Sequence record: MN850621.1
Length of the DNA stretch: 64,000 bases
Direction: 5' to 3' (one strand)
From: Escherichia phage dhabil
Shown: positions 1 through 51,273 of the stretch, piece after piece
Layout: the number at the start of each line of letters is the position of its first letter
Position numbering within the stretch: the stretch's first letter is position 1
Notes under the pieces: generated by a model
The model's database searches: none
Told to the model about the DNA's origin: nothing
The model's input: the letters and a program-made list of their open reading frames with translations, nothing else
Made by a program: the position numbers and the translations under genes

Positions 1-87
1 GGTATATTGGTCTGAGTCTAAACGTTCAATGGCGCGTTCAGCGAAGGCGTGCATTAAGGTTAGATAAATGGGGGTTAAAAATTTCAT
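1..87 (-). CDS. hypothetical protein, N-terminal fragment (gene continues beyond window start)
   Basis: ATG at 87 on minus strand, open frame to window edge (MKFLTPIYLTLMHAFAERAIERLDSDQYT...); not in ORF track because truncated. Confidence 0.3.
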   Translation of the reverse strand, partial: MKFLTPIYLTLMHAFAERAIERLDSDQYT

Positions 88-225
88 AGTTGTCTCTTAG
101 TTGTGGGCCGTTCCTTGGCACATTAATTCGTCCCTTTCTGCATTTACCCATTACCGCACTTGGGCTCGACCTTATTACAGGTTGGCGGGAGTCCCTCACA
201 GAATTGTGAGGTCCAGGTTGCTCCC

Positions 226-642
226 TTATGCGTAAATCGCCTTACCATAATGTTTGTACCAGGTAGGACGTTGTGCAATTTTTTCATCCAAACGGGCTTG
301 TGAAATAGCGATAGAAGCTTCGTGAGGAACATAATCACCACGGAATTCCTGAGGAATATCACTAATGTCCTGGACTGTAGTATCCTTGATATTAAAGCCA
401 CGTTTTAAACATTCAGCTATAAGCTCAATTTGACGCTTACGTAAAAATTCAAGCTTATCATAAAAGAATGTAACATGGCCTGTACCAAGGATAAAAGTAG
501 GGCTGATTTTAAAATCACGAACACGTTTACCGTTAGCAACATGCTTACGAACTGCACCGAAAACACGTGGTAATTCACGGTATTCAGCCATAAGGTGTTG
601 GTCGGCCAATTCAGATACTAAGGTAAGGTTGATACGAGTCAT
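226..642 (-). CDS. denV: endonuclease V, pyrimidine-dimer DNA glycosylase/AP lyase
   Basis: 138 aa, near-identical to T4 DenV as remembered ([26 protein letters not shown]...); SD AGGAG upstream. Confidence 0.95.
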
Positions 643-668
643 TTTAATCTCCTGTAGTTGATAGGTCT

Positions 669-697
669 ATAGTATCATGCCTACCGGAGATGTAAAC
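669..697 (-). promoter_or_regulatory. T4-type early promoter for denV (-35 GTTTAC, 17 nt spacer, -10 TACTAT)
   Basis: Minus-strand GTTTAC (692-697) and TACTAT (669-674); same cassette recurs upstream of other early ORFs. Confidence 0.5.
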
Positions 698-702
698 TGC
701 TT

Positions 703-1191
703 TTATCTATAAGCGGCCCAAGTACCTGTTTTAAAGGTGGCGATAACACGCTTGGCACGATTCGGGGTTTGCTTGTACCAACGAGACTGCGCCAGGTTAA
801 CTGCGGCGTCATCCCAACGTTTTTGTTGGAGCATACGCAGAGAGTTGGTAAATCCCGCTACACCAGCTTCACCCATTTGGAAGACCATATTAATCAATGC
901 ACAACGACGAACTTCGTCCAGCACATCATAAACCGGTTTCAATTTAGGATTGCGCATTATAGCTCTACGAGCATTTTCCACTGAACGATTAAAGAGTTGT
1001 TCAGCTTCAGCCATAGTAATACGACCATTACAAACTCGACCCATAAGCTTATCAAGTTCAGCGCGAGCAACATCTTTAGATGGGTTCTTGGTAACTAACT
1101 GGCCTATACCAATAGTCCAATAACCTTCGGTGTCTTTATAAAGATTTAAATCAAGACCTTCGTCTTGACGTAACATATCAAAAATATCCAT
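703..1191 (-). CDS. e: lysozyme (endolysin), T4 gene e homolog
   Basis: 162 aa, aligns along full length with T4 lysozyme (…[17 protein letters not shown]…[59 protein letters not shown]). Confidence 0.95.
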
Positions 1192-1195
1192 AATA

Positions 1196-1221
1196 CCTCC
1201 TGAGTATAGGAGGTATTTATA
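1196..1221 (-). promoter_or_regulatory. late promoter TATAAATA abutting an SD-sequestering hairpin for gene e
   Basis: Minus strand reads TATAAATA-cctcct-atactc-AGGAGG-tatta-ATG; the inverted repeat cctcct/aggagg contains the SD. Confidence 0.5.
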
Positions 1222-1671
1222 TCAAAAGAGCGAATCTAAAACCTTAAACATCGACGGGCCCATGACATATTCCCATTGCGGACGTTTAATCAAGGCGAAG
1301 GCATCAAATTCAGGAATCGTACGACCATCAGGGAACGTGTGGTAAGCTGTACATTTGCAATTCTTGAACTGCTCGTGTTCGACAGGCACAGTATATAAGA
1401 ACAGGTGTAGATTCTTATTGCTAGAATATTTGAACTCACCTAGGTCTTTCAGGAACGCAGGATCGTATGCAGTGAATCCAATCTCTTCTTCAGTTTCACG
1501 CATTGCTGCTTGAATAGGCTCTTCACCCGGTTCGACATGACCTTTAGGGATGTCCCATTTATGACGCATATTCTCTGGATTACGAGAACCTGTTACACGA
1601 CCCATAACCAATTCTTTATCGGCGGTCATAAACAAAATACCGGCGGATAGTTCTTTAACTTTTTTACTCAT
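1222..1671 (-). CDS. nudE: Nudix hydrolase (T4 e.1/NudE-like)
   Basis: 149 aa with Nudix box GHVEPGEEPIQAAMRETEEEIGF; position immediately downstream of e as in T4. Confidence 0.85.
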   Translation of the reverse strand: MSKKVKELSAGILFMTADKELVMGRVTGSRNPENMRHKWDIPKGHVEPGEEPIQAAMRETEEEIGFTAYDPAFLKDLGEFKYSSNKNLHLFLYTVPVEHEQFKNCKCTAYHTFPDGRTIPEFDAFALIKRPQWEYVMGPSMFKVLDSLF

Positions 1672-1900
1672 CGTCTCGTTTCCATGATTGGTTAAAAATG
1701 TCGCTCATTAAAATTTCAAGTCTATTTTCTAATGACGGACTTTCACTATCAGATATTTGGACCATATAATCAGAAATAGGTCGGAACATATCCAAGTCGC
1801 TTTCTAAATCTTCTTTGATTTTCTCTTCTGATGTTCCAGTGTCATAGGAATACAGATAAGAATCGCATGACTCAGATTTAATATAAATCGCAATACTCAT
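1664..1900 (-). CDS. hypothetical small acidic protein
   Basis: 78 aa ORF, start overlaps upstream stop (ATGA coupling), SD GAGGAA. Confidence 0.5.
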   Translation of the reverse strand: MSIAIYIKSESCDSYLYSYDTGTSEEKIKEDLESDLDMFRPISDYMVQISDSESPSLENRLEILMSDIFNQSWKRDDE

Positions 1901-2484
1901 TTACGGCATTCCTCAATAAAAGAGTTTAATGTATTTTTCTTAGTGATATCGTCATATACCTTTTTAACTTTAGAAATACGAAAAGGTACTTCAATAACTG
2001 CAGTCCATAAAAATGATGCGATAAGTCCTAAGATAGCCGCAGACATCGCTGAAGCAAATAGCGTAATAGGCAGGTCATTATCCGTTGTCAGGAAAAACCC
2101 TAGGAGTGGGAAAAATAATATCCCCATCCAAACATAGAACCTAGAACTCACCAATTTGTCGTATTCATCACTCCATGTACGGAAGCCGTATTTTTTGCTA
2201 TAACAAATCAATGGGTCCGGCGTCTGTTCTTTATGGGGTTCCGGTTGCCAACCATTTACGATATAGCCCATTTTATATTCCTCAATTAAAAGTTGTTTCA
2301 TTTCAGCAGTACATCCTGACCAATCTACTGTACTGGCTGAAATTCCTTCATCAGCATCATCAATATTTCGCCAGGACTTTTTAATAATCATATTCTCACC
2401 ATTTGGGATAATGATTCCGGCATTTTCAGACCGACGGATGAAGTTTACATCAACACCCATGCAACCAGGTTCATAAAGGGCCAT
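1897..2484 (-). CDS. hypothetical membrane protein with C-terminal FIxECR motif
   Basis: 195 aa; hydrophobic segment VWMGILFFPLLGFFL…AILGLIASFLWTAVI; C-terminus …NTLNSFIEECRK. Confidence 0.55.
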   Translation of the reverse strand: MALYEPGCMGVDVNFIRRSENAGIIIPNGENMIIKKSWRNIDDADEGISASTVDWSGCTAEMKQLLIEEYKMGYIVNGWQPEPHKEQTPDPLICYSKKYGFRTWSDEYDKLVSSRFYVWMGILFFPLLGFFLTTDNDLPITLFASAMSAAILGLIASFLWTAVIEVPFRISKVKKVYDDITKKNTLNSFIEECRK

Positions 2485-3170
2485 TACCAGCCCTCCATAG
2501 GGAATTCCAGATATACTTGAGCATTAACGCGGATTTCATTTGTAATCTTTTTAACACGGTCGGTATTACGAGACACACGACCAAACCAGCGCCATCCGTT
2601 ACTTACTGCACGGGAACCTGTATGCCATGTCTGCCAATCAAACTGGAGCAATGTACGGTCAGGAGCATCCCACTTGGTTAATTCATTAGACTCAATTTTT
2701 TCCAGAACTTCTTTATGCCACTGGCGATAGATAAGTTCGCCATCAGGAATCTGGCTAAATTGTGCAGTTCCGGTTGCAAAATAAGTAGGACACACATCAG
2801 CGTTAACAAGACCAAGAATATGTTCAGAATGGTATCGAGGGTTATCATAATCAGGTTGCCCTGCAGTAATAAAGTGTTGACCAACCGGAATATCCGGGCG
2901 TGGTACATCATCATGGTGATAACCTGGGATAGCAGGATACCAACCAGGCATCAGCATATGAACCCGAGAATCAAATACAACCTGGTCGGTGTTCCAATCA
3001 TCCGGCAGACTCATTATAAAGCTACGAGTAATAGGGCCACCATTATCAAAAGCGAAAGCCAATGAGCTGTTGAAGAACATAGTTTCGTTTTTGATTTTAT
3101 CGTTAGAAATTTTACCAGCGAAACCGCCTACTGCACGAGCTTGAGAATTAAAAGTTTTTGGGCTGTTCAT
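2484..3170 (-). CDS. hypothetical protein
   Basis: 228 aa ORF with SD TGAGGAAAATATT-ATG; no family recognised from sequence. Confidence 0.6.
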   Translation of the reverse strand: MNSPKTFNSQARAVGGFAGKISNDKIKNETMFFNSSLAFAFDNGGPITRSFIMSLPDDWNTDQVVFDSRVHMLMPGWYPAIPGYHHDDVPRPDIPVGQHFITAGQPDYDNPRYHSEHILGLVNADVCPTYFATGTAQFSQIPDGELIYRQWHKEVLEKIESNELTKWDAPDRTLLQFDWQTWHTGSRAVSNGWRWFGRVSRNTDRVKKITNEIRVNAQVYLEFPMEGW

Positions 3171-3180
3171 AATATTTTCC

Positions 3181-3411
3181 TCAGAAGCAAGTATTAACTT
3201 TACCAGTTGTGCTTACACATGTGTTACCGAGCTGAACACCTAAAGTACCATTAGGATTCATATGGAGATTATTACCGATCTTAACCGATGTACCATCTTT
3301 ACTGACAACGATTGAGGATTCAACTTGTGTTTCGTCTCCAACATCAACAATAAAAGGAACTGCAGCTAAAGCAACCAAGCTCAGGGCTAAAACACTCATG
3401 ATGGCTTTCAT
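3181..3411 (-). CDS. small secreted/periplasmic protein (signal peptide)
   Basis: Start taken at internal ATG after GGAG SD (MKAIMSVLALSLVALAAVPFIV…); conserved leader cassette upstream. Confidence 0.5.
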   Translation of the reverse strand: MKAIMSVLALSLVALAAVPFIVDVGDETQVESSIVVSKDGTSVKIGNNLHMNPNGTLGVQLGNTCVSTTGKVNTCF

Positions 3412-3476
3412 TTTATTCTCCAATTCACTCATTTGTTTTGATAGGTCTATAATAACATATCTTACGAGAATGTATA

Positions 3477-3689
3477 TTACTTTTTGTTGAAAAAGTACAT
3501 TTTACCTTTAGGGGATAAGGATACACGAAGTGCATTACCGATACCAACCGAACATTTAACCAGGTCAGCAGATTTCAATTCACCAAATGCTTGACGAAGG
3601 TCACCGTCACGAGTGTTAACCATCAGACATTTAGCACCAGCTGCACGAACTTCGTTTAACATGTTGATTGCTTGGTTAGAAAGTTTCAT
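3477..3689 (-). CDS. hypothetical small protein
   Basis: Start at ATG 6 nt after GGAG in the conserved leader (MKLSNQAINMLNEVRAAGAK…); the track ORF extends further 5' into the leader. Confidence 0.45.
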   Translation of the reverse strand: MKLSNQAINMLNEVRAAGAKCLMVNTRDGDLRQAFGELKSADLVKCSVGIGNALRVSLSPKGKMYFFNKK

Positions 3690-3720
3690 TTTATTCTCCA
3701 TTTCACTCTGTTGTTTTGAT

Positions 3721-3755
3721 AGGTCTATAGTATCACACCTATAGACCTTGTACAC
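3721..3755 (-). promoter_or_regulatory. early promoter with perfect 10-bp stem-loop (PeSL-like cassette)
   Basis: Minus-strand -35 GTGTAC (3750-3755), -10 TACTAT (3727-3732); inverted repeat aggtctatag (3721-3730) / ctatagacct (3739-3748). Confidence 0.55.
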
Positions 3756-3767
3756 TGTTTTATGCAA

Positions 3768-4727
3768 TTATTTTTCGAAAGGACGAATTAAATGTTGATT
3801 ACGCTTAAACCGGTTGATGTAGTCACTTTCACCTAGGGTCCTATACATATTCACTACAGCTTGGTAGTTTTCCCAGGCATACTCACGGAACCAACCTGAA
3901 GTGATTGAGGTGCACACTTTCTCAAGAGCCATATAGAAACTTGTGGCCGCTGGGATATTAAAGTCATTAGGAACCTGCGAACGCTCTAGAGCAAGTACAC
4001 ATGCTTCTTCATAAACCCCTGCCAGTTTAATAGCTTCAGGCAAAGCTTCAAACTTCTCACGAGAGGTCATGACTTCAGAACCATCTTTCATATAAAAGGT
4101 ATACGCTGGGCGTCCGGCTAATGCCACAGCTTCATGAATAGAGTCGTGGTCTAATGTATAGATGGTATCATTAAAGAACGATGATTTGTTTACATCTAAT
4201 TTAGGATGAGAATAGCTCAACGTTTCTTTCTGACGTTGCAGCATGATTTCTTGGAGCTCTTCATTCAAGGTTACACCTTTATTACGAAGGTATTTGATGT
4301 GGGACATCGTCTTCAAAAAGAAAGGGTTGTTCTTCAAATAACGATGGCTCATTTTGATGGCCAGACAGATATCAGGCGTGGCCCAATAGAAACCCGTCAT
4401 CCGATCTTTCTTAATATGTGTTTTAGCATAATTCAGAAGGCGGTAGCTTGAGGTGAAATCCTCATCTTGGAGTTCGCCGGTAATTTCACGTACGTTAGTC
4501 AAGGCGCGGACGATATAAGCTTCAAAATAGGTTTCTTTACCGTTGTGCATGCATTTAAAAGCCTGGACGTCAGGGTTGTCTACGTGTACATGGGCGCCAA
4601 ACATCTGTGCTTTAAAATTATTCCATGACCCCTGGTCGGCAATAAAATCCCAATCAGAATTTTCGATATACTTACTTTCAATCAGACCAGCGTGGTGCAG
4701 TGCACGAGAACCAATAACTAGCATCAT
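3768..4727 (-). CDS. hypothetical protein (319 aa)
   Basis: Long ORF with SD GAGGAAAATATT-ATG; no confident family assignment. Confidence 0.65.
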   Translation of the reverse strand: MMLVIGSRALHHAGLIESKYIENSDWDFIADQGSWNNFKAQMFGAHVHVDNPDVQAFKCMHNGKETYFEAYIVRALTNVREITGELQDEDFTSSYRLLNYAKTHIKKDRMTGFYWATPDICLAIKMSHRYLKNNPFFLKTMSHIKYLRNKGVTLNEELQEIMLQRQKETLSYSHPKLDVNKSSFFNDTIYTLDHDSIHEAVALAGRPAYTFYMKDGSEVMTSREKFEALPEAIKLAGVYEEACVLALERSQVPNDFNIPAATSFYMALEKVCTSITSGWFREYAWENYQAVVNMYRTLGESDYINRFKRNQHLIRPFEK

Positions 4728-4740
4728 AATATTTTCCTCA

Positions 4741-4908
4741 TTAATAAAGACGAGTTACTTCATATTTACCCAGTTCAGATTTTTTTGCTTCAATACGCGT
4801 TGCGGCTAGATTAGCAGCCTCTAGTGAAGAAAATTGGACCACTTGGGAAGTATTCTGCCTTACGCCACCTTGTGGGTGAGTAACAAAAACAATAAGAACA
4901 TTATACAT
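4741..4908 (-). CDS. hypothetical small protein (55 aa)
   Basis: Below the ORF-track size cutoff; found by manual translation (MYNVLIVFVTHPQGGVRQNTSQVVQFSSLEAANLAATRIEAKKSELGKYEVTRLY), SD TGAGGAAAATATT. Confidence 0.35.
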   Translation of the reverse strand: MYNVLIVFVTHPQGGVRQNTSQVVQFSSLEAANLAATRIEAKKSELGKYEVTRLY

Positions 4909-4929
4909 AATATTTTCCTCAGAGTAAAC

Positions 4930-5169
4930 TTAAATTTCAGCAACGTAATCGTTATGCAATTCCCACATATCATCAGAATTATTCTTAATGATAGGAATTA
5001 TCTCATTAGAGATTTCTTCGGCATAAGGGTCGTTGATACAGTGAGCGTCTTCAAAACGAACACCATAATCAGACTTCTTATAGGCAAAGCCATAAATCTT
5101 TTTAAACTTGGCACGACTAATGCGTACCGGCTCATCAGACTTATCAGACAGTGGAGAGTAATACCACAT
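4930..5169 (-). CDS. hypothetical small protein
   Basis: 79 aa ORF with SD AGGAG 6 nt upstream of ATG. Confidence 0.45.
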   Translation of the reverse strand: MWYYSPLSDKSDEPVRISRAKFKKIYGFAYKKSDYGVRFEDAHCINDPYAEEISNEIIPIIKNNSDDMWELHNDYVAEI

Positions 5170-5213
5170 AATGTTCTCCTCATGTTTGTGTAAGGTAATA
5201 GTAACACAAGTTT

Positions 5214-5564
5214 TTAGAGTTGTACATCACTTCTGCAATATTCTAAAAATAATTTATCGCTGTCTACTGTATCCCAACGCCGCCAAGATGGATTCCAGAC
5301 CAGAGCGTTGTCACCACAATCATTGAGCTTAAAATGGTCGTAGTACATGGCTATGTGTCTAGTCTCGTCACCGGAGAACCCTAGTATAGGCTCGCCGTGG
5401 GTATGATACATATGATGGTGCATTGAGAGGTCGCACTTATAAAACATCTCACGTTTACCACGAACGAACAAGAAAGCTTGCCCATTCATATAGAATTCTT
5501 TATCTGTTTTCAAAAGATATTTGAATACTGAATCTTTGTGCATAAGTCCTCCTACCACATCCAT
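5214..5564 (-). CDS. hypothetical His/Cys-rich protein
   Basis: 116 aa ORF (…CDLSMHHHMYHTHGEP…); alternative start at 5543 has the stronger SD (AGGAGGA). Confidence 0.5.
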   Translation of the reverse strand: MDVVGGLMHKDSVFKYLLKTDKEFYMNGQAFLFVRGKREMFYKCDLSMHHHMYHTHGEPILGFSGDETRHIAMYYDHFKLNDCGDNALVWNPSWRRWDTVDSDKLFLEYCRSDVQL

Positions 5565-5573
5565 GTGGCTAAA

Positions 5574-5801
5574 TTATTTTCCTAACGAAATACGAGTAGG
5601 TTTTTTACCAAAGTATTCTTCATAAGAACCATCTAAACGACCTGCTTTAGACCGGCAATATGAATCATACTTTTTATAATAGGCCATCTCAGTATTATAA
5701 CGTGGGTGTCTATCAGCCATAATAATACTTAACGGCCAACCTTTGGCATAATCGCGAAGACCGTTTATTTTATGAATGTATCTTTTCTTTAATTTTAGCA
5801 T
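5574..5801 (-). CDS. hypothetical small protein
   Basis: 75 aa ORF in a tightly packed minus-strand operon. Confidence 0.4.
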   Translation of the reverse strand: MLKLKKRYIHKINGLRDYAKGWPLSIIMADRHPRYNTEMAYYKKYDSYCRSKAGRLDGSYEEYFGKKPTRISLGK

Positions 5802-6019
5802 GAGCTTGGGTACCAGATTTTACCATCGGAGCGAGCAACGAAGGTACGACCAGCTTCTTCACCATAACAAGAGCTATTCAGCCAATCTTCAAGACGAACT
5901 TCACCATCATAATCATCAAGCTCAACACCAAAATCCTGAGCAGAAGCCATATCTTTTACTTTCTTATACAGCGCAGCCAGTTCAAGAGCTGCTTTTTCTA
6001 ATTCATTAATATTAGACAT
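5795..6019 (-). CDS. small acidic protein, paralog 5 of the C-terminal W-x-x-SS-C family
   Basis: 74 aa, ends …KIWYPSSC; member of the tandem array. Confidence 0.55.
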   Translation of the reverse strand: MSNINELEKAALELAALYKKVKDMASAQDFGVELDDYDGEVRLEDWLNSSCYGEEAGRTFVARSDGKIWYPSSC

Positions 6020-6028
6020 TTTATCACC

Positions 6029-6241
6029 TTAGCAAGACATAGAGGATGTAAACCAGAAACCTTCACCATCTGGGATACCGTAATCATCACGGACCCATTC
6101 GTAATCATCATATTCCGGATTCTTTGGGGAAATGTATTGTCCACGGCCGGAAACATGGAACTCTTCACCTGTTTCGTCAGCCACGGACTGACCTTTACGT
6201 ACTAATTCACGGATTTGTTTTTCAATTTCATCAATAGTCAT
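6029..6241 (-). CDS. small acidic protein, paralog 4 of the C-terminal W-x-x-SS-x-x-C family
   Basis: 70 aa, ends …GFWFTSSMSC; preceded by ggtaataaaATG-type RBS. Confidence 0.55.
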   Translation of the reverse strand: MTIDEIEKQIRELVRKGQSVADETGEEFHVSGRGQYISPKNPEYDDYEWVRDDYGIPDGEGFWFTSSMSC

Positions 6242-6250
6242 TTTATTACC

Positions 6251-6448
6251 TTAGCATTCGTAAGAGGAGGACACCCAAGAGGTACCACTAATAGTAATAC
6301 AACCGTTATAAAGCGTTATATGTCGTTCTAAGTCACGAGCACCATCAATATAGATATCAGCTTCTTCGCGTTCTTCTTTACAAATTTGAATAACGTTTTC
6401 AATTGCCGCAGCGGCAGTTCGGATTGCACAATCTAATTCACGAGACAT
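6251..6448 (-). CDS. small acidic protein, paralog 3 of the C-terminal W-x-x-SS-x-x-C family
   Basis: 65 aa, ends …TSWVSSSYEC. Confidence 0.55.
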   Translation of the reverse strand: MSRELDCAIRTAAAAIENVIQICKEEREEADIYIDGARDLERHITLYNGCITISGTSWVSSSYEC

Positions 6449-6457
6449 AATATTTCC

Positions 6458-6739
6458 TTAACATTCAGAAGAAGAGGACACCCAACCGCCAGTTGCGAGG
6501 TCAGTTGTATAGTCATGAGTATTAACAATAGCCCATTCAGGATGACCATCTTCTTCCCAATGGGCAAGGTCAGCTTTCAAGGCGCCAGGAGAATAATAGT
6601 CACCGCCCATACCGCGAGCAGGGTATATATTAAAATGAGTCTCATATTTGTCTGCAATTTCCTCGGCACGACGAATAGCTTCATGAATTTCTTTTACTGC
6701 GGCCAGAAGCTCTGGATGGTTATGATTATCATTCATCAT
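6458..6739 (-). CDS. small acidic protein, paralog 2 of the C-terminal W-x-x-SS-x-x-C family
   Basis: 93 aa, ends …GGWVSSSSEC. Confidence 0.55.
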   Translation of the reverse strand: MMNDNHNHPELLAAVKEIHEAIRRAEEIADKYETHFNIYPARGMGGDYYSPGALKADLAHWEEDGHPEWAIVNTHDYTTDLATGGWVSSSSEC

Positions 6740-6748
6740 AGCTTTTCC

Positions 6749-7039
6749 TTAGCACATTGCCGAAGAGGAGACCCAGGCACCAACTGTAACGACGCCATTT
6801 TCAACTTCACCGCCATTGTTTTCAATTTCATCTTTAAACCACTGGGAGCATTCATAACCAACAGGGTAGTAGGTACGTCCTGAGCCATAATCACCTGTTC
6901 CGAATTGAATACCGTACTTATCGGCAATAGCTTCACATTTGGATTCGATGATATCTACTTTACCGAGCAGGGCATAGATAGCTTTTTCTGCAGATTTCTC
7001 GTCGTTGTATTCAGGGATTTCAATTTCAATTTTATTCAT
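6749..7039 (-). CDS. small acidic protein, paralog 1 of the C-terminal W-x-x-SS-x-x-C family
   Basis: 96 aa, ends …GAWVSSSAMC. Confidence 0.55.
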   Translation of the reverse strand: MNKIEIEIPEYNDEKSAEKAIYALLGKVDIIESKCEAIADKYGIQFGTGDYGSGRTYYPVGYECSQWFKDEIENNGGEVENGVVTVGAWVSSSAMC

Positions 7040-7389
7040 GATTTACATTCCTTAATAAAGGTTTCAAGGTCATTACGTTTGGTTTGTTTTACATACTCAT
7101 TATAATTAGCCATCTCTAAAGCATATCTCTTACGGATGGGAGCATTCAAAGCATTTGTATGGCAAATATCATACACGAGAGGGATAAAATAAGCCACGAC
7201 AGCCGGAGCAATTATCATATAGAAACCCATCTCAATAGGCATGACTCCTTCGATTGCAGCCATAACTGTGGTCATTACCAGACCAACCAGACCGCCGAGC
7301 ATACCTGTGACAATTCCCGTGAATAAGGAAATAGCAATATCATATTCAGCCAATTGATAAACATGCGATGAAAGACTAGGCCGTTCCAT
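7036..7389 (-). CDS. hypothetical membrane protein with C-terminal FIxECK motif
   Basis: Start at internal ATG (MERPSLS…) preceded by SD AGAGG; multiple hydrophobic helices; C-terminus …NDLETFIKECKS. Confidence 0.5.
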   Translation of the reverse strand: MERPSLSSHVYQLAEYDIAISLFTGIVTGMLGGLVGLVMTTVMAAIEGVMPIEMGFYMIIAPAVVAYFIPLVYDICHTNALNAPIRKRYALEMANYNEYVKQTKRNDLETFIKECKS

Positions 7390-7918
7390 TTTGGACCTCT
7401 TTAGCGTATTCACGGCATTCAGCAATAAAGCGATTAAGCTTCCGTTGTTGTTTACGACTTTCTAATGTGTACTCAGCAGTTAAGATACCAAGCTCGGCTT
7501 TATCATAATTTTTAATATCAGTGTAAGATGGTCGACGGTCGACCATTCCAAATACATCACCATTTTCTAAAGCCACATAGCATACTAAATGGTAATCATC
7601 GTCTGCCATATTAAGAAGCACGCAATCATTGCTCTCATTTAAAGAATATACTGAATAACGTAGTCCAGCGAATTCCACTCGTTGAATAGCCAGATTTACG
7701 TCAATAATTTCCAAAGCATCTTCAAAAGAAAGGTCTTCAGCTAAAGCAAAAATAAAAGGTAATTTGGTAGTATCGCCACGGCTAGATGTTCTGCTTAAGA
7801 AATCGTTTGAATAGCCTAGGTCTTGGCGAATTCTATAAAGAACTGAATTGGTTTCATGGGAAAGACCACTATTTTTAAACCAATCAATATTTGATATAAG
7901 GTTATCATATAAACTCAT
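7376..7918 (-). CDS. hypothetical protein with FIAECR motif near C-terminus
   Basis: 180 aa ORF, SD GGAGGAGAGGAGAATATT-ATG. Confidence 0.55.
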   Translation of the reverse strand: MSLYDNLISNIDWFKNSGLSHETNSVLYRIRQDLGYSNDFLSRTSSRGDTTKLPFIFALAEDLSFEDALEIIDVNLAIQRVEFAGLRYSVYSLNESNDCVLLNMADDDYHLVCYVALENGDVFGMVDRRPSYTDIKNYDKAELGILTAEYTLESRKQQRKLNRFIAECREYAKEVQNGTA

Positions 7919-7931
7919 AATATTCTCCTCT

Positions 7932-7949
7932 CCTCCAAATAGGGAGACC
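7932..7949 (-). terminator. hairpin (gggagac-UUCG-gucuccc), likely minus-strand terminator/attenuator
   Basis: 7-bp GC-rich stem with UUCG tetraloop, short U tract on minus strand. Confidence 0.4.
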
Positions 7950-7966
7950 GAAGTCTCCCGGTAATA

Positions 7967-8560
7967 TTACTTAAGTGAATTAATGTAGTCTTCGATATCG
8001 GCTGAAGTCGTATCCATTCCAACTTGTGGGCCTTTAAACGTTTCTACACGCAGCAGGGTATCTTCAATATCAATCTTAGTCAATGCAGCGATTTCAACCA
8101 CATCATCGGCAGTAGCAATACCAAGGGCAGCCATATTACGAGTTTCACGAATGTACTCAAGCTTAACCGCTAGTTCCTGGCGAGAGTCATCAAGTTCCTT
8201 GACCTTCAGTTTAATTTCATTACGCATTTCGATATAATCGTCTGCTTTCTTACGAAGTTGATTAGCTGTACGACGATAAAGGAGGCCAAGTTTAGCATGC
8301 ACCTGGACATCGGCGCCTTCTTTAATCAGTTTACGAATTTCACGCTCTTTTGAAGCGGCGAGTTGGTCTTTTTCATTCGCTAACTCGCGAATACGTTTTT
8401 CTTCATTCACAGACTTAACATGAGCAGTCTGGAGTTCAGTAATTTTATCAATCAGGGTAGAAGCAGCTTTAGTATACTGGTCTTCGATTGACAGGTTCTG
8501 AGTCATTGCGGTACCCAGTTTAGAACGGATGAATTCAACGATTTTCTTTAAAGTGTTCAT
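7967..8560 (-). CDS. coiled-coil protein, possibly PspA/IM30-like
   Basis: Start at internal ATG ([10 protein letters not shown]…) with SD GAAGGA; predicted long heptad-rich helices; family call is tentative. Confidence 0.5.
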
Positions 8561-8597
8561 AGTATTTCCTTCAGTCGGTTGATATTTTGTAATCCAT

Positions 8598-8633
8598 GAG
8601 GACATTATACCCTGTCCTCTGAGGGTTGTAAAC
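8598..8633 (-). promoter_or_regulatory. strong sigma70-type early promoter with stem-loop over the -10
   Basis: Minus-strand -35 GTTTAC (8628-8633), -10 TATAAT (8604-8609), 18 nt spacer; inverted repeat gaggac/gtcctc flanks the -10. Confidence 0.55.
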
Positions 8634-8636
8634 ATT

Positions 8637-9035
8637 TTATTTCATTTTTGCTAGGCAAATTTCATTGGCTTCCCATTGAGCTTGCTTAATAATAGCTTTG
8701 GATACAGGAACCCTTTGACCATAAGTTTTTGACGTTGAGAGAACAATATATTTGTTTGCCTCATTATGCCAACCTAGTGATTTTTCACCATGAGTACCTT
8801 TAACCACAGCTGACACCTCAACAGAGCAACCACCATCAGAAATCTTGGTTTCTACAATCCATTCATTTCTCTCGACAGCTTCAATTTCCGATCTCCTTTT
8901 TTCTTCATACATGGCGGCCCAATCAGTTTTTGCCAAGCTGAAAGTAAGAGCTTTCTCTAATTCTTTGGCAGCTTTTTGTTGTTCAGGCGTTAATGAATTA
9001 TACAACTCTTGCATTTCTTTATCTTCGATATTCAT
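8637..9035 (-). CDS. hypothetical protein
   Basis: 132 aa ORF in the early accessory operon. Confidence 0.5.
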
Positions 9036-9092
9036 TATGCTCTCCTCAAATTACGGGCTCATAATATCTCAATCATGAGCCCGTGTAAACAA

Positions 9093-9356
9093 TTATTTCA
9101 TATTATTGAAATAATCTTCCGCATCAAAATCGTTATCGTGATAAACTTTGGTAGACAATTTGACGTACCCTTCGGCAGCAAACATATTAACCACAACCTT
9201 TACGGTATACCACTGTCCATCGTCATTACCCATTACTGCGTAGGTTTCAAATATGGGATGGTCATCACCTATAACCTTAATATCGTTAACAGTAGCACCA
9301 AATTCTTCAGGAACGCATTTCATAAAGAAATTAAACAATTCACCATAATTATCCAT
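9093..9356 (-). CDS. hypothetical small acidic protein
   Basis: Start at ATG 9356 after SD AAGGAG; the track start at 9371 is a GTG inside the conserved leader. Confidence 0.5.
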   Translation of the reverse strand: MDNYGELFNFFMKCVPEEFGATVNDIKVIGDDHPIFETYAVMGNDDGQWYTVKVVVNMFAAEGYVKLSTKVYHDNDFDAEDYFNNMK

Positions 9357-9391
9357 TTTACTCTCCTTCACTCTGTTGTTTTGATAGGTCT

Positions 9392-9420
9392 ATAGTATCA
9401 CGTTTAAAGGAGGTGTAAAC
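9392..9420 (-). promoter_or_regulatory. T4-type early promoter cassette (-35 GTTTAC, -10 TACTAT)
   Basis: Minus-strand GTTTAC (9415-9420), 17 nt spacer, TACTAT (9392-9397), followed by the conserved leader agacctatcaaaacaacagagtgaa. Confidence 0.55.
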
Positions 9421-9458
9421 AACTTTGTGAAATTATTTTTAGTTTAAACCCCCTAAAA

Positions 9459-9474
9459 GGAGACCGAAGTCTCC
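9459..9474 (-). terminator. rho-independent terminator (ggagac-UUCG-gucucc + U tract)
   Basis: Hairpin immediately 3' of the 9480..10103 gene, U tract on minus strand. Confidence 0.5.
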
Positions 9475-9479
9475 TTTCA

Positions 9480-10103
9480 TTATTTACGAGTCTTTTCGAA
9501 CTGAGCTGCGTCACCGGCCAGTCGGCGTGCTTGACGAAGTTTGTTGTCAATTTCTTCGCGCATAGGCTGGGTGTACTTAAGGCCTTCAACCGTCAGATAG
9601 AGACGATAAAGGTCTGGTGTGTCCAGGTTGTTAATGTGTTGACCGTTACGAAGAACATTGAATTCACGAACAAGGTGTTTAGTTTCGGATTCTATTTCAG
9701 AAACCAAAGAAGCCAGTTGGTTATATTTTTTAACAATAGTGCTGGTGTCGAACTTGATTTTAGGTTTAGGAGCTTCTTTTACAGGCTCTGCTTTAGGTGC
9801 TGCCGCAGGTTTAGGTGGTGCAACTTTGGTTGGGGCTGCAGGTTTAGCAACAGGAGCTTTAGCTGGTTTAGCAGGTTTAGTAGCGCCACCGGCTACGATA
9901 TCTTTAAAAGCTTTGGAAGCTTTGTAATATTCTTTCTGGTTACTAGTATCAAAACCATACATATCATAAACGTTTTTAAAGAACTCGGTAGTGGTTTTAG
10001 TCCCGGAAATTTTATCATAAGCAGCTTGCCACATATCTTTAGTCATGCGCACGCTGGCTTCAGTCAGAACGCTTTCGTTCAAAAATTCATTGTAAGTTTT
10101 CAT
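9480..10103 (-). CDS. internal head protein (IP) with capsid-targeting sequence and Ala/Pro/Lys-rich linker
   Basis: N-terminus MKTYNEFLNESVLTEA matches the T4 IP capsid-targeting sequence and protease cleavage motif (LTE|A); late promoter upstream. Confidence 0.6.
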   Translation of the reverse strand: MKTYNEFLNESVLTEASVRMTKDMWQAAYDKISGTKTTTEFFKNVYDMYGFDTSNQKEYYKASKAFKDIVAGGATKPAKPAKAPVAKPAAPTKVAPPKPAAAPKAEPVKEAPKPKIKFDTSTIVKKYNQLASLVSEIESETKHLVREFNVLRNGQHINNLDTPDLYRLYLTVEGLKYTQPMREEIDNKLRQARRLAGDAAQFEKTRK

Positions 10104-10131
10104 TATTGTTTCCTGTGTTAATTAACTTATC

Positions 10132-10139
10132 TATTTATA
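10132..10139 (-). promoter_or_regulatory. late promoter TATAAATA (minus strand) for the IP gene
   Basis: Exact TATAAATA ~30 nt upstream of ATG at 10103. Confidence 0.5.
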
Positions 10140-10140
10140 C

Positions 10141-10168
10141 AAAAAAGGCCCAACCTTTCGGAAGGGCC
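10141..10168 (-). terminator. rho-independent terminator at the 3' end of the tRNA/stable-RNA transcription unit
   Basis: Hairpin ggcccaaccuuucggaagggcc followed by U6 on minus strand. Confidence 0.65.
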
Positions 10169-10338
10169 TTTAACCTAGGGTAACCTTGTCGGGGTTCCAC
10201 CTGCTAGGCAAGTGTTCGGTGCGCCGTTTCAGCTGTGAGATAAGGGACTTTAAGAGGAACTCATGTACGCCTTAAAGTCGGGTCTTATTCAGGGAACTTC
10301 AGTCCGACGACTTACCGGTAGCGACCCGGTTTCTTGTT
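10169..10338 (-). ncRNA. possible small stable RNA(s) downstream of the tRNAs
   Basis: 170 nt with no ORF, relatively GC-rich, between tRNA-Arg and the terminator; inferred by analogy to T4 species 1/2 RNAs. Confidence 0.25.
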
Positions 10339-10414
10339 TGGTCGAGACAGTAGGGATCGAACCTACGACCCAGGACTTAGAAGGTCCTTGCTCTTCCTTC
10401 TGAGCTATGCCTCG
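10339..10414 (-). tRNA. tRNA-Arg (anticodon UCU)
   Basis: Manually folded cloverleaf: acceptor cgaggca/tgtctcg, anticodon stem aggac/gtcct, loop cuUCUaa, T-arm gtagg-ttcgatc-cctac, encoded CCA. Confidence 0.8.
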
Positions 10415-10418
10415 TATT

Positions 10419-10493
10419 TGGCGGACATGCATGGATTCGAACCATGGACCAATTGATTAACAGTCAACTGCTCTACCACTGAGCTACACATCC
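10419..10493 (-). tRNA. tRNA-Asn (anticodon GUU)
   Basis: Cloverleaf: acceptor ggatgtg, D-arm gctc-agtggta-gagc, anticodon loop cuGUUaa, T-loop ttcgaat, encoded CCA. Confidence 0.75.
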
Positions 10494-10497
10494 AAAT

Positions 10498-10571
10498 TGG
10501 TGGCCCTGGGTGGAATCGAACCACCATCCAGCGATTATGAGTCGCTCGCTTGACCGTCCAGCTACAGGGCC
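10498..10571 (-). tRNA. tRNA with CAU anticodon (Met, or Ile if lysidine-modified as in T4)
   Basis: Cloverleaf: acceptor ggccctg, anticodon stem agcga/tcgct, loop cuCAUaa, T-arm ggtgg-ttcgatt-ccacc, encoded CCA. Confidence 0.8.
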
Positions 10572-10656
10572 TTAATTCTATTATGAAAGGCTCTTTGAGG
10601 GAAGAACCTTTGGTAATAGAGGGTATTAATGATAGAGTAATAATATCACATAATTC

Positions 10657-10941
10657 TTAAAGCATATTAATATAGTCAAGTTTAATAGAAGCAATCTTCA
10701 AAGGGTTTTTAAAGATGTCGTATTCGACCAATCCATTTTCAGTTGCGGTATAAAAAGTAAAGTTAACAGAATTATAGCGATGGCTGTTAACTTTGAGTTT
10801 AACATCGCTTGAACTACGGCCAATATTAACCTGTTGAACATCAAGCACGGCATCTTTGCCGTAATTTCGAATCAACAACTCGGCTGCAACCTGATCGGAT
10901 TTATAGCCATTCTCTGGATTAGTAACCTTAACGTATAACAT
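10657..10941 (-). CDS. hypothetical protein
   Basis: 94 aa ORF, SD GAGGG, start overlaps upstream stop (TAAATG). Confidence 0.5.
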   Translation of the reverse strand: MLYVKVTNPENGYKSDQVAAELLIRNYGKDAVLDVQQVNIGRSSSDVKLKVNSHRYNSVNFTFYTATENGLVEYDIFKNPLKIASIKLDYINML

Positions 10942-11322
10942 TTAACCCTCGTCTACAATAGTGTGGGTATTGGCATTGACAATCTGCCACCAGTCAAAAC
11001 GATTGGAACCGTAACAAGGCTTATTCTCGTTTTCTTTAATGATATCGCGCAGTTCATCTTCAGTCGCGGCCTTTGCGATTAAGTCAGCATAACCGCCACG
11101 AGGATAATAGTTATCACCGGCAAAGAGCAAAAAGTTTGTTTTGATATTCTTGAATTCTTCAAGAGTAATAACTGTTCCACCCGGTTGAACAATATCTACA
11201 TAACTATATCCTAATTTCTGTGCTTCATTTACCGCTTCAAGCAGGGTGTCATGCGCCCACCCAATTTGGCAATCTGGTTTTTCAGATGGATTTGCTTGAT
11301 AATCCGCATACACTTTATACAT
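10942..11322 (-). CDS. hypothetical protein
   Basis: Start at internal ATG (MYKVYADYQ…) preceded by SD AGGTGAG. Confidence 0.5.
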   Translation of the reverse strand: MYKVYADYQANPSEKPDCQIGWAHDTLLEAVNEAQKLGYSYVDIVQPGGTVITLEEFKNIKTNFLLFAGDNYYPRGGYADLIAKAATEDELRDIIKENENKPCYGSNRFDWWQIVNANTHTIVDEG

Positions 11323-11323
11323 T

Positions 11324-11509
11324 TTACTCACCTTTAGAGATTTTATCCATAACGAAAGAGATTGAACCAATTAAGAATGCCACTACTAAAGAGATTATAT
11401 TCTCGGAAGTTGTAAGCAAATCCAACATGAATCCTGCAAACATACTAAAGCCAAAAGCAGTAACGGCGGCCAGTGCAGTAACATTTCTAATTAATTCACA
11501 ACGTTTCAT
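11324..11509 (-). CDS. small membrane protein (two predicted TM helices)
   Basis: Start after GGAG in the conserved leader (MKRCELIRNVTALAAVTAFGFSMFAGFMLDLL…). Confidence 0.5.
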   Translation of the reverse strand: MKRCELIRNVTALAAVTAFGFSMFAGFMLDLLTTSENIISLVVAFLIGSISFVMDKISKGE

Positions 11510-11545
11510 TTTATTCTCCAATCACTCATTTGTTTTGATAGGGCT

Positions 11546-11574
11546 ATAGTATCATCACTAGAGCCCGTTGTAAA
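11546..11574 (-). promoter_or_regulatory. early promoter cassette with imperfect stem-loop (PeSL-like)
   Basis: Minus-strand -35 TTTACA (11569-11574), 17 nt, -10 TACTAT (11546-11551); inverted repeat gggctctag/ctatagccc. Confidence 0.5.
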
Positions 11575-11579
11575 TAACT

Positions 11580-11858
11580 TTAAAGTGCTTTTTTCAAAAT
11601 ATCAAAGTGCTTGGTGGCGATGTAAACGGTTTTCATTACAGAAGATTCTTGAGCCGGGGAAATAACAATGCTCCCACCGTCTTTTTTAGCATGGTAACCG
11701 TCGCCCAGATAAACAGTACCTTTAAGTTCATCACCATTAAGACCGATAACCGGTTTACCTTCACGGCCTTTGTTTAGGGCTATAACTTCACTCATAACAC
11801 TGGCTTCAGTGATAGGAGCCACTTTTTGAGATTTACTAAATTCTTGATAAGTTTTCAT
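11580..11858 (-). CDS. internal head protein (IP) paralog with capsid-targeting sequence
   Basis: MKTYQEFSKSQKVAPITEA… (CTS with ITE|A cleavage motif); start at second in-frame ATG of the conserved leader. Confidence 0.55.
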   Translation of the reverse strand: MKTYQEFSKSQKVAPITEASVMSEVIALNKGREGKPVIGLNGDELKGTVYLGDGYHAKKDGGSIVISPAQESSVMKTVYIATKHFDILKKAL

Positions 11859-11896
11859 TTTGATTTCCATTTGGTTAGTTTGTTTTTGATAGGCCT

Positions 11897-11925
11897 ATAG
11901 TATCATCACTAAAGCCCTTTGTAAA
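11897..11925 (-). promoter_or_regulatory. early promoter cassette (PeSL-like)
   Basis: Minus-strand -35 TTTACA (11920-11925), 17 nt, -10 TACTAT (11897-11902). Confidence 0.5.
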
Positions 11926-11936
11926 ACATTTTTAAA

Positions 11937-12820
<884 letters not shown>

Positions 12821-12828
<8 letters not shown>

Positions 12829-13582
12829 TTTTATTTCCTAATAATTTATCAATAGTAGTGTATAGTTCAGAAAGAGTGCCGTTATTTTCAATAACAACGT
12901 CACCAGGTAAAATTGGTAGACCCGCTTCAGTGATGTGCGAGTCTTGTACTTGACCGGTTTCAGCGCGAACTACATGAATAATCGTAGCACCCATCGCTCT
13001 GAGCGAATCAATTTCGTGTGTTTGACGAACATCAGGTACGACATAGTATTTCGCATCAGAGTATATTTTATCAAAATAGTCTAAAGCGAACAACTTAACC
13101 CAATACATCTTATCAAATTGGTTAACAATAATATCAGTCCCAAGGGTCTGCATGAGACGACGTACTGACCAATTGTTATTTTTATTTATTACTTCAAATA
13201 GCTGGTCTTTTGTTTCTTCAGACAGATACTGGGCCGGGGTAAGACCATAATGATATGCGATACGAACATCAATTCCTGGAATAGGAAGGATATTATTCAG
13301 CTTAACAATAGCATGTTCAAAAATATCAACCACATCATACGGTTTTAAAGGAATTATTTCTTCACGGTCATAACCGATACCTTCAAAACAATTAAAATCT
13401 AATTTAGGCATATAGCTACGGTCGAATACAGGGTCATCAGATATGTATTCATAAGCTTCAGCCAGATACTTTTTAATAGGACCAGCGAGTTGGAATTTTA
13501 CGGAATCCATATTCTCAATTACATAGTTAGCAACGGTATCCTTACCGCTACGTTTGATTCCTACAATTGATATTAGTTTCAT
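12821..13582 (-). CDS. 1: deoxynucleoside monophosphate kinase gp1
   Basis: 253 aa, P-loop GIKRSGKDT and strong similarity to T4 gp1 (…MYWVKLFALDY…ATIIHVVR…). Confidence 0.9.
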
Positions 13583-49767: not shown

Positions 49768-51273
49768 ATGTCAGACAATCCATTATACGGGCATGATGGT
49801 AGAGGCCACTTTAGAGGCGTATCATTAGTAGAAGTTCCACAGAACAAATCATTGGAATTTGTGGACATACTCACTAGTGAAAGCACCTTAGACCCTACTA
49901 TGCTAGATTCTTCTCAAAGCTATGGACTTGAATTTATAAAACAAGCTTCTAGGGAAGGCGCGTTGGCCCATTTAGGTATAACTAATGAGATGCTAACACC
50001 TGGTACTGAAGGTCCACAAGGCCCTAAAGGAGACCCAGGGCCGCAAGGTATTCAAGGTAACCCCGGTCCTAAAGGAGAAAAGGGCGAACCAGGACCAGTA
50101 GGTCCAGAAGGTCCTAAAGGAGACCCGGGTTCACCAGGAAAAGAAGGCCCTCAGGGTTTACAAGGGGCCCAAGGAGAAGTAGGACCGCAAGGACCACAAG
50201 GTCCTATAGGCCCGGCAGGTTTGGTGTGGAAGGGAGCCTGGGATGAATCTACCCAATACTCTAAAGACGATGCAGTTGGATACCAGGGAGCTTCTTATTT
50301 TTGCATCAGTTCTAATACAGGAACAATACCTCCTAGCGAAGGAGTTTGGGCACTATTGGCTAATATCGGTGCACCAGGTCCTCAAGGACCAACAGGCCCA
50401 ACCGGCCCTCAAGGTCCACAAGGCGCGCCAGGCCAAGATGGTAATGGGTTTATCTGGGCCGGAAACTGGGCCCTTGGTTCGTCTTATTATATAAACGATT
50501 TGGTCCAGTGCGAAGGGTCTTCTTGGATTTGTATCCAGGATAATATAGCAAATAATGATAGTTATCCTGGGAGTGGAGACCTGTGGGCCGATTATTGGAA
50601 TTTATTTGTAAAAGAAGGGCGTCCAGGAAATCCCGGAGAAGATGGTGCACCTGGAGAGCAAGGTGCCCAAGGACCGCAAGGCGACCCAGGTCCTAAAGGT
50701 GAAAAGGGTGAACCCGGGCCACAAGGTATTCAAGGTCCTATAGGTCCTGCAGGTGCGCCAGGCAAAGATGCAGTATTTGATGTCGATTCTTTAACCCAGT
50801 CTCAATTAAAATCTTTATATGATAAACTTTTCCCATTCTATCCACCTAGATATTGGAAAGGCTCTTTAAGATTTGATAAGCCTCTGAACACTTCAGAGTG
50901 GAAGGAAATACGTTTGTGGGACCTTAATATGGTTCTTCATGTTCGCATGTACTCATCTGTAGGCATCCATATAAGGGCTACTAATGCAGGTCTTACTAAT
51001 AGGCTTGATATTAAAAGATTTACCAACTATGAAAACGGAATAGAATGTGCCAACTGGAGTAATGTGTTGTGGTCATCATCTCCTGAATTATTCGACGATT
51101 TGGCTTATTCTAGTGCAAGACAATTTAACCGTTACGAAATATTTGACCGTGATACTAGAAAATACTACACTGTATCTGTGTTTATTGTAGGCGGCCCTCT
51201 TAATACGACTACAGATATCCCTGTTGAAGTTTTATTTTCTGTCGAAGACCATACCAATATGAGCACGTTTTAA
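49768..51273 (+). CDS. collagen-like protein with two chitin-binding-type (CBM5/12-like) modules and a C-terminal globular domain
   Basis: 501 aa; three Gly-X-Y blocks (about nt 50002-50194, 50347-50424, 50623-50769) separated by W…Y…D.V.Y.G..Y.C modules; SD AGGAG. Confidence 0.8.

Follow-up and report, generated by a model that had tools for sequence, protein, structure and literature searches.

Gene gain, loss and exchange at early-promoter elements is a pattern already published for T4-type phages, and here we describe such elements in a 64,000-nt stretch of Escherichia phage dhabil (MN850621.1; "the window", to which all coordinates refer). Its minus strand carries a series of repeated cassettes, which are most probably the T4-type early promoter plus translation-initiation units of Dhakavirus, acting as passive crossover sites. 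The closest described elements are the early promoter/stem-loop units (PeSLs) of phages RB49 and phi1, composed of an AT-rich tract, an early promoter, a stem-loop, a Shine-Dalgarno sequence (SD) and an ATG, the stem-loop lying most often between -35 and -10 or overlapping the -10 (Arbiol et al., 2010; PMC2839356). PeSLs concentrate in hyperplastic regions and recombine, giving deletions and mini-circles (PMC2839356), and they were later extended to T4/PST (TTTACW-N17-TAYWAT) and nt-1/KVP40 (Comeau et al., 2014; PMC4122927). JS98 is named by Arbiol et al. only for PeSL-like sequences near gene 43, and the T-even internal-protein-locus elements of Repoila 1994 are treated there as PeSL analogues with T4 early promoters and weaker, AT-rich stems (PMC2839356).

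A first-pass annotation made from the sequence alone had called the window cassettes PeSL-like. They do contain the same parts (promoter, AT-rich tract, SD and ATG), cluster in a hyperplastic region beside open reading frames (ORFs) that differ among close relatives, and appear to have crossovers between the -35 and the ATG. We therefore regard the window as holding a Dhakavirus instance of the described class. However, the Dhakavirus promoter is of the T4 type (GTTTAC / TGnTACTAT), whereas PeSLs have a near-perfect TTGACA/TATAAT, and its stems are AT-rich, built on CTATAG and found in some copies only, whereas those of PeSLs are polyG/polyC. Mini-circle results come from RB49 and phi1 and the reporter result from RB49, whereas the Dhakavirus cassettes are described here from sequence. 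The elements of Repoila are reportedly similar in that internal-protein genes sharing an N-terminal capsid-targeting peptide lie next to a T4 early promoter bearing an inverted repeat, and in that swaps end in the promoter and in the peptide codons (here 11574-11577 and 11823-11837). In the window, an IPI_T4-family gene beginning with MKTYQEF lies between the cassettes at 11546-11575 and 11897-11926, and the T4 ipI, ipII and ipIII promoters have the same layout. In contrast to the elements of Repoila, the cassette type of the present genome extends beyond the internal-protein loci and is genome-wide (~20-40 promoters, including those of motA, regB and denV). Moron accretion in lambdoid phages, reportedly described by Hendrix et al. 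in 2000, is alike in that single accessory genes bring their own promoter, but morons are independent of conserved flanking repeats and often lie against the flow of transcription.

Over its bases 1-12,500, the window is 98.8% identical to dhaeg (full length) and 88-98% identical to other Dhakavirus (JS98, JS10, IME08 and others); it comes from a Dhakavirus, a JS98-like T-even coliphage. Reading of the minus strand placed every hexamer of the six promoter sites proposed earlier at its expected position, and the proposed degenerate seventh copy and the perfect inverted repeat at 3721-3748 are present as well (Table 1). Early promoters of the same class which had not been listed lie at 9090-9061 and 5227-5198, with a weaker candidate at 4931-4900. 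In the following, the eight clear window promoters are the six listed ones, the degenerate copy and 9090-9061. A repeat search recovered a six-copy family of 46 nt (at 658, 3438, 3716, 9381, 11535 and 11886) and a four-copy family of 85 nt (at 3413, 3691, 9356 and 11510). The 17-nt core TACTATAGRCCTATCAA has six matches in the window at ≤1 mismatch, with 0.49 expected at ≤3 mismatches. Four near-identical leaders had also been proposed, and CTATCAAAACAANNGAGTGA indeed occurs four times exactly versus 0.09 times expected. These repeats are far beyond chance.

Table 1. Early-promoter cassettes and neighbouring features of the window (folding, including z and minimum free energy [MFE], as described in the text; SD-spaced start, first base of the ATG set at the regular distance from the SD).
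Feature	Position (strand)	Promoter elements	Leader, start and further elements	Folded segment	z	MFE (kcal/mol)	Longest ORF	SD-spaced start
denV cassette	640..703 (-)	A-rich tract; GTTTAC 697-692; TGn + TACTAT 674-669	start-region box to 658; SD AGGAG 653-649; ATG 642-640; repeat family D3	655-700	-0.07	-6.0		
Degenerate cassette	3409..3477 (-)	ATATAC 3477-3472; TGt + TATTAT 3454-3449	long leader; in-frame upstream ATG 3432-3430; ATG 3411-3409; precedes 76-aa signal-peptide-like ORF 3181-3411	3435-3480	-0.76	-4.9	3181-3432	3411
Cassette of 70-aa ORF (3477-3689)	3687..3760 (-)	GTGTAC 3755-3750; TACTAT 3732-3727	10-bp perfect inverted repeat AGGTCTATAG 3748-3739 / CTATAGACCT 3730-3721; long leader; in-frame upstream ATG 3701-3699; ATG 3689-3687	3713-3758	-3.3	-15.4	3477-3767	3689
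Additional early promoter	5198..5227 (-)	ATGTAC 5227-5222; TGt + TACTAT 5203-5198	overlaps stop codon of preceding ORF; predicted to drive ORF 4930-5169; spacer-shuffle z -2.6					
e.6 promoter	8558..8635 (-)	GTTTAC 8633-8628; TATAAT 8609-8604	7-bp inverted repeat GAGGACA 8619-8613 / TGTCCTC 8604-8598; own leader, not of the shared type; ATG 8560-8558	8590-8635	-1.2	-12.7	7967-8635	8560
Promoter of ORF 8637-9035	9033..9092 (-)	GTTTAC 9090-9085; TATTAT 9066-9061	inverted repeat ACGGGCTCAT 9084-9075 / ATGAGCCCGT 9062-9053, extending to 13 bp; strongest hairpin	9048-9093	-6.2	-21.5		
e.8 cassette	9354..9477 (-)	GTTTAC 9420-9415; TACTAT 9397-9392	long leader; ATG 9356-9354	9378-9423	+0.58	-1.6	9093-9371	9356
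trna.4 cassette	11507..11580 (-)	ATTTAC 11575-11570; TACTAT 11551-11546	inverted repeat GGGCTCTAG / CTATAGCCC; box variant GCCC paired by spacer GGGC; long leader; ATG 11509-11507	11532-11577	-4.05	-12.4	11324-11521	11509
Cassette of IPI-like gene (11580-11858)	11856..11945 (-)	TTTTAC 11926-11921; TACTAT 11902-11897	imperfect inverted repeat; in-frame upstream ATG 11870-11868; ATG 11858-11856	11883-11928	-1.9	-9.9	11580-11870	11858
Ribosome-binding-site (RBS) repeat TGAGGAAAATATTATG	3169..3185, 4727-4745, 4908-4925 (-)		upstream stop codon + SD + ATG; second recombination substrate					
denV	226-642 (-)							
Lysozyme e	703-1191 (-)							
nudE, run of small ORFs, e.6, e.8	beyond e (-)							
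tRNA Arg/Asn/Met cluster, trna.2, trna.3, trna.4, internal-protein genes, 57B, 57A	further on (-)							

The core TACTATAGRCCTATCAA is the -10 plus start region of a genus-wide early promoter. The complete dhaeg genome holds about 22 copies at ≤3 mismatches; without exception they are on the early-gene strand, with an annotated ATG 32-46 nt downstream, and motA, regB, denV, alc, sp, srd, frd.1 and motB.2 are among the genes behind them. Alignment of the dhaeg promoters gave the consensus AAAAAnTGTTTACATCnnCTnTAGACATGATACTATAGACCTATCAACTAAnnAGGAGAATAAAATG, a sigma-70-type layout which can be written as AAAAAnTGTTTACATCnnCTnTAGACATGATACTAT. It begins with an A-rich UP-like tract, the -35 GTTTAC, a spacer (17 nt in the consensus, 17-18 nt among the cassettes) and TGn plus the -10 TACTAT, and continues with a conserved start region (AGACCTATCAA), a 22-35-nt A/C-rich leader and the SD GGAG, past which the ATG follows after 6-7 nt in every cassette copy. 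The core box is present in T4 too, whose denV promoter (CAGTTTACATCTCCTGTAGGTATGATACTATAGACCTATCAACTACAGGAG) equals the window denV promoter almost base for base. Being genome-wide in dhaeg and common to T4, the core was ruled out as a repeat family local to the window; it is simply the early-promoter consensus shared by the genus and T4, not a special local element. Early promoters of T4 have been described as an "über" UP/-35/TGn/-10 type with additional consensus positions (PMC2988021). The Dhakavirus promoters resemble them in all of these elements, including extra conserved positions. The T4 consensus itself was reportedly given by Liebig and Rüger in 1989 and by Miller et al. in 2003.

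Two leader types follow the start region. Most promoters use a short one, ATCAACTAA(TG)AGGAGA..AAAATG, while four copies in the window have a long one, ATCAAAACAA(CA/AT)GAGTGAA(A/T)TGGAGAATAAAATG, which in contrast to the promoter was not found in the 20 kb of T4 that were examined. When IMG/VR was scanned for exact matches of the pattern, the long leader turned up in 19 stretches, all on seven contigs of 155-175 kb, JS98 and VR5 included, with 1-4 matches each. It stands before at least six unrelated ORF families, and downstream of one and the same promoter plus leader the ORF starts with MNKMKNTQ... in JS98 and VR5 but with MKTLNINS... in another genome. The long leader is a subtype restricted to Dhakavirus, occurring on contigs of Dhakavirus size (about 170 kb) with 3-4 copies in each genome. 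A structured leader RNA was considered and rejected: the only Rfam matches in the region are three tRNAs, and the leader is short, A/C-rich and unstructured.

Alignment with related phages had been suggested as a check of whether genes are shuffled at the cassettes. Junctions were taken from chained BLAST matches of window positions 1-13,500 with 11 Dhakavirus loci, and synteny does break at the cassettes. At 646-718, e and denV are separated in relatives by 366-1485 bp of ipII, ipIII or orf114. At 3183|3476, a 292-nt module of cassette plus ORF (3184-3475) is found only in the window, dhaeg and CLB_P2, its two parts being there or missing together, and at 3685 the 70-aa ORF is replaced in ABTNLS3. 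VR5 is without the two genes between two promoter leaders (8581|9378), and further junctions lie at 9046 (JS10) and at the e.8 cassette (9432-9438) among JS10, PSD9 and ABTNLS3. The internal-protein gene is replaced at 11574-11577 in nine relatives and at 11823-11837, i.e., an IPI-like gene is swapped between two cassettes, and the junctions 11934-11945 and 12141-12147 enclose an internal-protein-like ORF missing from five relatives. The latter, a 69-aa ORF on the minus strand (11937-12146) with a GTG start and an internal-protein-like N-terminus (phrog_23867), overlaps the 57B stop and is without annotation in dhaeg.

The junction between e and denV is the most telling. Upstream and through GTTTACATCTCC, the window spacer equals the JS98 e|ipIII promoter; what follows (spacer, -10 and leader) equals the JS98 orf114|denV promoter. 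This match to two promoters places the crossover in the -35 region, inside GTTTACaTCTCC, and the alignments overlap at the junction by 13-22 nt. The e|denV promoter thus reads as a visible chimera of two JS98 promoters.

Other junctions with overlap lie outside the cassettes. Those at 3183 and 4744|4906 fall on copies of the RBS repeat TGAGGAAAATATTATG (overlap 20 nt), which flank a 161-nt single-ORF module (4741-4908) missing from six relatives. A paralog array (6278|6443), the 5' region of an internal-protein gene (10079-10168) and the surroundings of the tRNAs contain such junctions too. The array (6009-6776, minus strand) consists of four small paralogous ORFs in tandem, each ending ...SS.EC*, with repeats at their C-terminal and intergenic ends (48-nt family D7); one unit is missing from KIT01 and PSD9, where the alignments overlap by 43 nt at the junction.

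To assess stem-loops, the segment from -35 to +12 of each of the eight clear window promoters was folded and compared with 200 dinucleotide shuffles (Table 1). Inverted repeats spanning the -10, which the first-pass annotation had reported for several sites, are clearly significant at three of the eight promoters, but weak at two and not detectable at the remaining three. Where a stem exists, it pairs a 5' arm in the spacer with a 3' arm that spans the -10 end and the start site. Among 38 predicted early promoters of dhaeg, shuffling of the spacer only gave a mean z of -1.70 (t-test p=3e-5), with z < -2 in 16. Swapping spacers among these promoters weakened the mean energy from -7.03 to -4.46 ± 0.34 kcal/mol, and the observed energy was reached in none of 200 trials. 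The spacer is thus specifically matched to its own -10/+1 segment, and such complementarity exists in about a third of promoters genome-wide and in two genera. Pairing with the own box also occurs with unrelated sequences, namely TAAGGCTAT/ATAGCCTTA, GGTACAGGT/ACCTGTACC, GAGAGCC/GGCTCTC and GGGC/GCCC. A like trend was found in T4 (mean z -2.28 for seven promoters of one 20-kb region). As far as we found, co-variation between promoter-embedded hairpins and their own -10 region had no quantitative support before, and spacer/-10 complementarity, with its genome-wide and cross-genus statistics, is the sole point at which the locus goes beyond the literature reviewed. Tentatively, selection may maintain the -10-spanning hairpin as a structural feature of T-even early promoters beyond the internal-protein loci, although we hold this to be less probable than its opposite.

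GGAG, the SD of the cassettes, is the motif cut by T4 RegB, and regB is encoded beside the region, in dhaeg directly past the window edge. Given their near-identity to T4 early promoters, the cassettes would be fired by host sigma-70 RNA polymerase immediately after infection, and RegB nuclease of the phage would cut the leader GGAG, shutting the early genes off, as both the knowledge from T4 and the presence of regB suggest. Each genome repeats the same 45-90 bp about 20-40 times, always in a single orientation, and less than 50 bp of homology suffices for T4-type recombination; the cassettes would thus act as passive crossover sites. Recombination at short homologies is well documented for T4 (PMC9391042). 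Exchange between cassettes would delete, insert or swap modules of promoter plus ORF, with no gene losing a functional promoter or RBS. What is seen directly are the junction positions and one chimeric promoter; the recombination mechanism is the reading we would give to them. The chimeric e|denV promoter and the 13-22-nt overlaps are the footprints expected from PeSL-type recombination, here read from aligned genomes.

Several observations weigh against this picture. Breakpoints in at least one of the 11 relatives occur at 9 of 10 promoter-bearing gene boundaries versus 10 of the 23 promoterless ones (one-sided Fisher p=0.015, odds ratio 11.7), which speaks for crossover at the cassettes, but the enrichment is modest and confounded: an indel has to end between genes to be viable, and a module that is inserted carries a promoter with it. 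Roughly half of the junctions are located elsewhere, namely at RBS repeats, at the ends of paralogs, in the tRNA region and in the codons of the N-terminal capsid-targeting peptide of internal proteins. Microhomology at the VR5 junction 8581|9378 is only 5-6 nt. Transcription starts, promoter strength and cleavage by RegB are predictions by analogy. Concerning the hairpin, three of the eight clear promoters have none, no U-run follows the stems, and a terminator scan called none of the -10 hairpins.

The first three of these points would also fit functional constraint alone, i.e., selection keeping promoters and RBS alike, with indel junctions coinciding since survivors end between genes. That promoterless boundaries have junctions as well, that RBS repeat copies, the paralog array and the tRNA region contain them, and that the VR5 junction shows so little microhomology are all in favor of this explanation. 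Against it, however, stand the e|denV chimera with its crossover inside GTTTACaTCTCC and its overlap, an identical promoter and leader before different ORFs in different phages, and the experimental mapping of crossovers in PeSL mini-circles of RB49 and phi1 (PMC2839356). We therefore consider constraint on its own rather unlikely.

The stems could similarly be without function, as by-products of palindrome-templated mutation or repair around CTATAG, or of past recombination. The CTATAG in the -10 box is self-complementary, quasipalindrome-templated mutagenesis is a classic T4 phenomenon, stem length and register vary, and many promoters have no stem. Nevertheless, stems also occur at promoters with unrelated boxes (GAGAGCC/GGCTCTC and GGTACAGGT/ACCTGTACC) and in both T4 and Dhakavirus, which makes this a doubtful account as well.

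Slightly less probable still are intrinsic terminators insulating each module, a role put forward and tested for one RB49 PeSL. Hairpins of -12 to -21 kcal/mol directly after the upstream stop codon would suit such a role, and the PeSL211/210 stem-loop cut lacZ about as much as the rrnB T1 terminator (PMC2839356). In the window, however, TATCAA or a similar sequence follows the 3' arm, and the lack of a U-run, of any terminator-scan call and of a hairpin at three clear promoters speaks against it. The only terminator-like hairpin near any cassette is a separate element, a UUCG-tetraloop hairpin with a U-run (9477-9456, z -3.2) upstream of the e.8 -35. As classical terminators, the -10 hairpins were consequently rejected for want of U-tracts and of a terminator-scan match. 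A transcript reading through from upstream would carry the -10 hairpin, while the promoter-initiated transcript would not. Being confined to read-through transcripts, the hairpin could be a U-tract-independent insulator or a 3'-end stabiliser, and as the latter it could act following RegB cleavage of the downstream GGAG; alternatively, it could form a cruciform focusing recombination. The data point weakly to attenuation, processing or 3' stabilisation of upstream transcripts by a hairpin that is not a classical terminator.

Autonomous mobile elements, for which the multiple near-identical copies might speak, or a leader acting as structured cis-regulatory RNA are very improbable, as the cassette sequences as read have no terminal inverted repeats or target-site duplications, the dhaeg region annotation and the ten accessory ORFs scanned contain no transposase or homing endonuclease, all copies share one orientation and a fixed distance to the ATG, and the Rfam result and composition of the leader given above speak against structure. 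The "mobile regulatory cassettes" of the first-pass annotation hold in so far as accessory genes are shuffled at cassettes in relatives; yet these look like passive recombination substrates rather than mobile elements, and comparable junctions lie at RBS repeats and paralog ends.

The cassettes also bear on the start codons of the genes behind them. It had been claimed that each embeds an in-frame upstream ATG, so that starts in the ORF list are too long. The literal form, ATGGAGAATAAAATG, was found only once, at 3701-3687, whereas the other copies have ATGAGTGAATTGGAG..., TTGGAG... or ATGGAAATCAAAATG, with in-frame upstream ATG, TTG or GTG codons. The consequence is nonetheless correct, as the longest-ORF start lies upstream of the SD-spaced ATG in six of seven cassette genes (Table 1). 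These over-long starts stem from listing the longest ORF, and public annotations mostly have the correct ATG. The same is true of dhaeg with the exception of e.6, which in dhaeg, CLB_P2 and MN04 is 639 nt long and takes as its start the ATG in TATAATG, which falls inside the -10 box (window 8606). In T4, JS98, JS10, IME08 and VR5, e.6 has 594 nt, starting from the SD-spaced ATG that corresponds to window 8560. The 639-nt version is probably mis-annotated.

All genes of the cassette region are on the minus strand. PHROGs and Pfam searches with ten downstream accessory ORFs gave no function except for ORF 11580-11858, which belongs to the IPI_T4 family (Pfam, 1.4e-26), its N-terminus MKTYQEF being the capsid-targeting peptide. 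A second protein of 207 aa (9480-10168, minus strand) starts with MKTYNEF as in internal proteins, contains an Ala/Pro/Lys-rich repeat and has a late-type promoter in front; JS98, MN04 and KIT01 have a second tandem gene with the same 90-nt 5' region. On the same strand, about 170 nt of non-coding sequence (10170-10338) extend from tRNA-Arg to a strong terminator, after which comes a late promoter (TATAAATA, about 10128-10140). T4 has its small stable RNAs rnaC and rnaD at this position. The non-coding stretch has no Rfam match at gathering score, and breakpoints of relatives lie at 10215 and 10340. Far from the cassettes, the plus strand at 50002-50756 has 9-nt-periodic runs of GGNCCNNNN, with 12 of the 13 listed copies of repeat family D1; they resemble collagen-type Gly-X-Y coding repeats and are probably inside a late structural gene.

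Taken together, the repeated cassettes seen in the first pass are confirmed, and the interpretation given to them is supported in substance. A third T-even genus is added to the PeSL picture, which itself is unchanged. In practice, the cassettes mark true gene starts, which matters since several public Dhakavirus records start e.6 inside the -10 box. Furthermore, they explain assembly breaks at repeats: both ends of the dhaeg record (MN850609.1) lie inside the same early-promoter cassette, with GTTTACTTCTGCTTTAAACATGATACTATAGACCTATCAAA and then different leaders, so that this linear record was probably opened, or its assembly collapsed, at the repeat upstream of motA. Finally, the cassettes predict where accessory genes, including an IPI-type anti-restriction protein, are gained and lost in a genus used in phage therapy.

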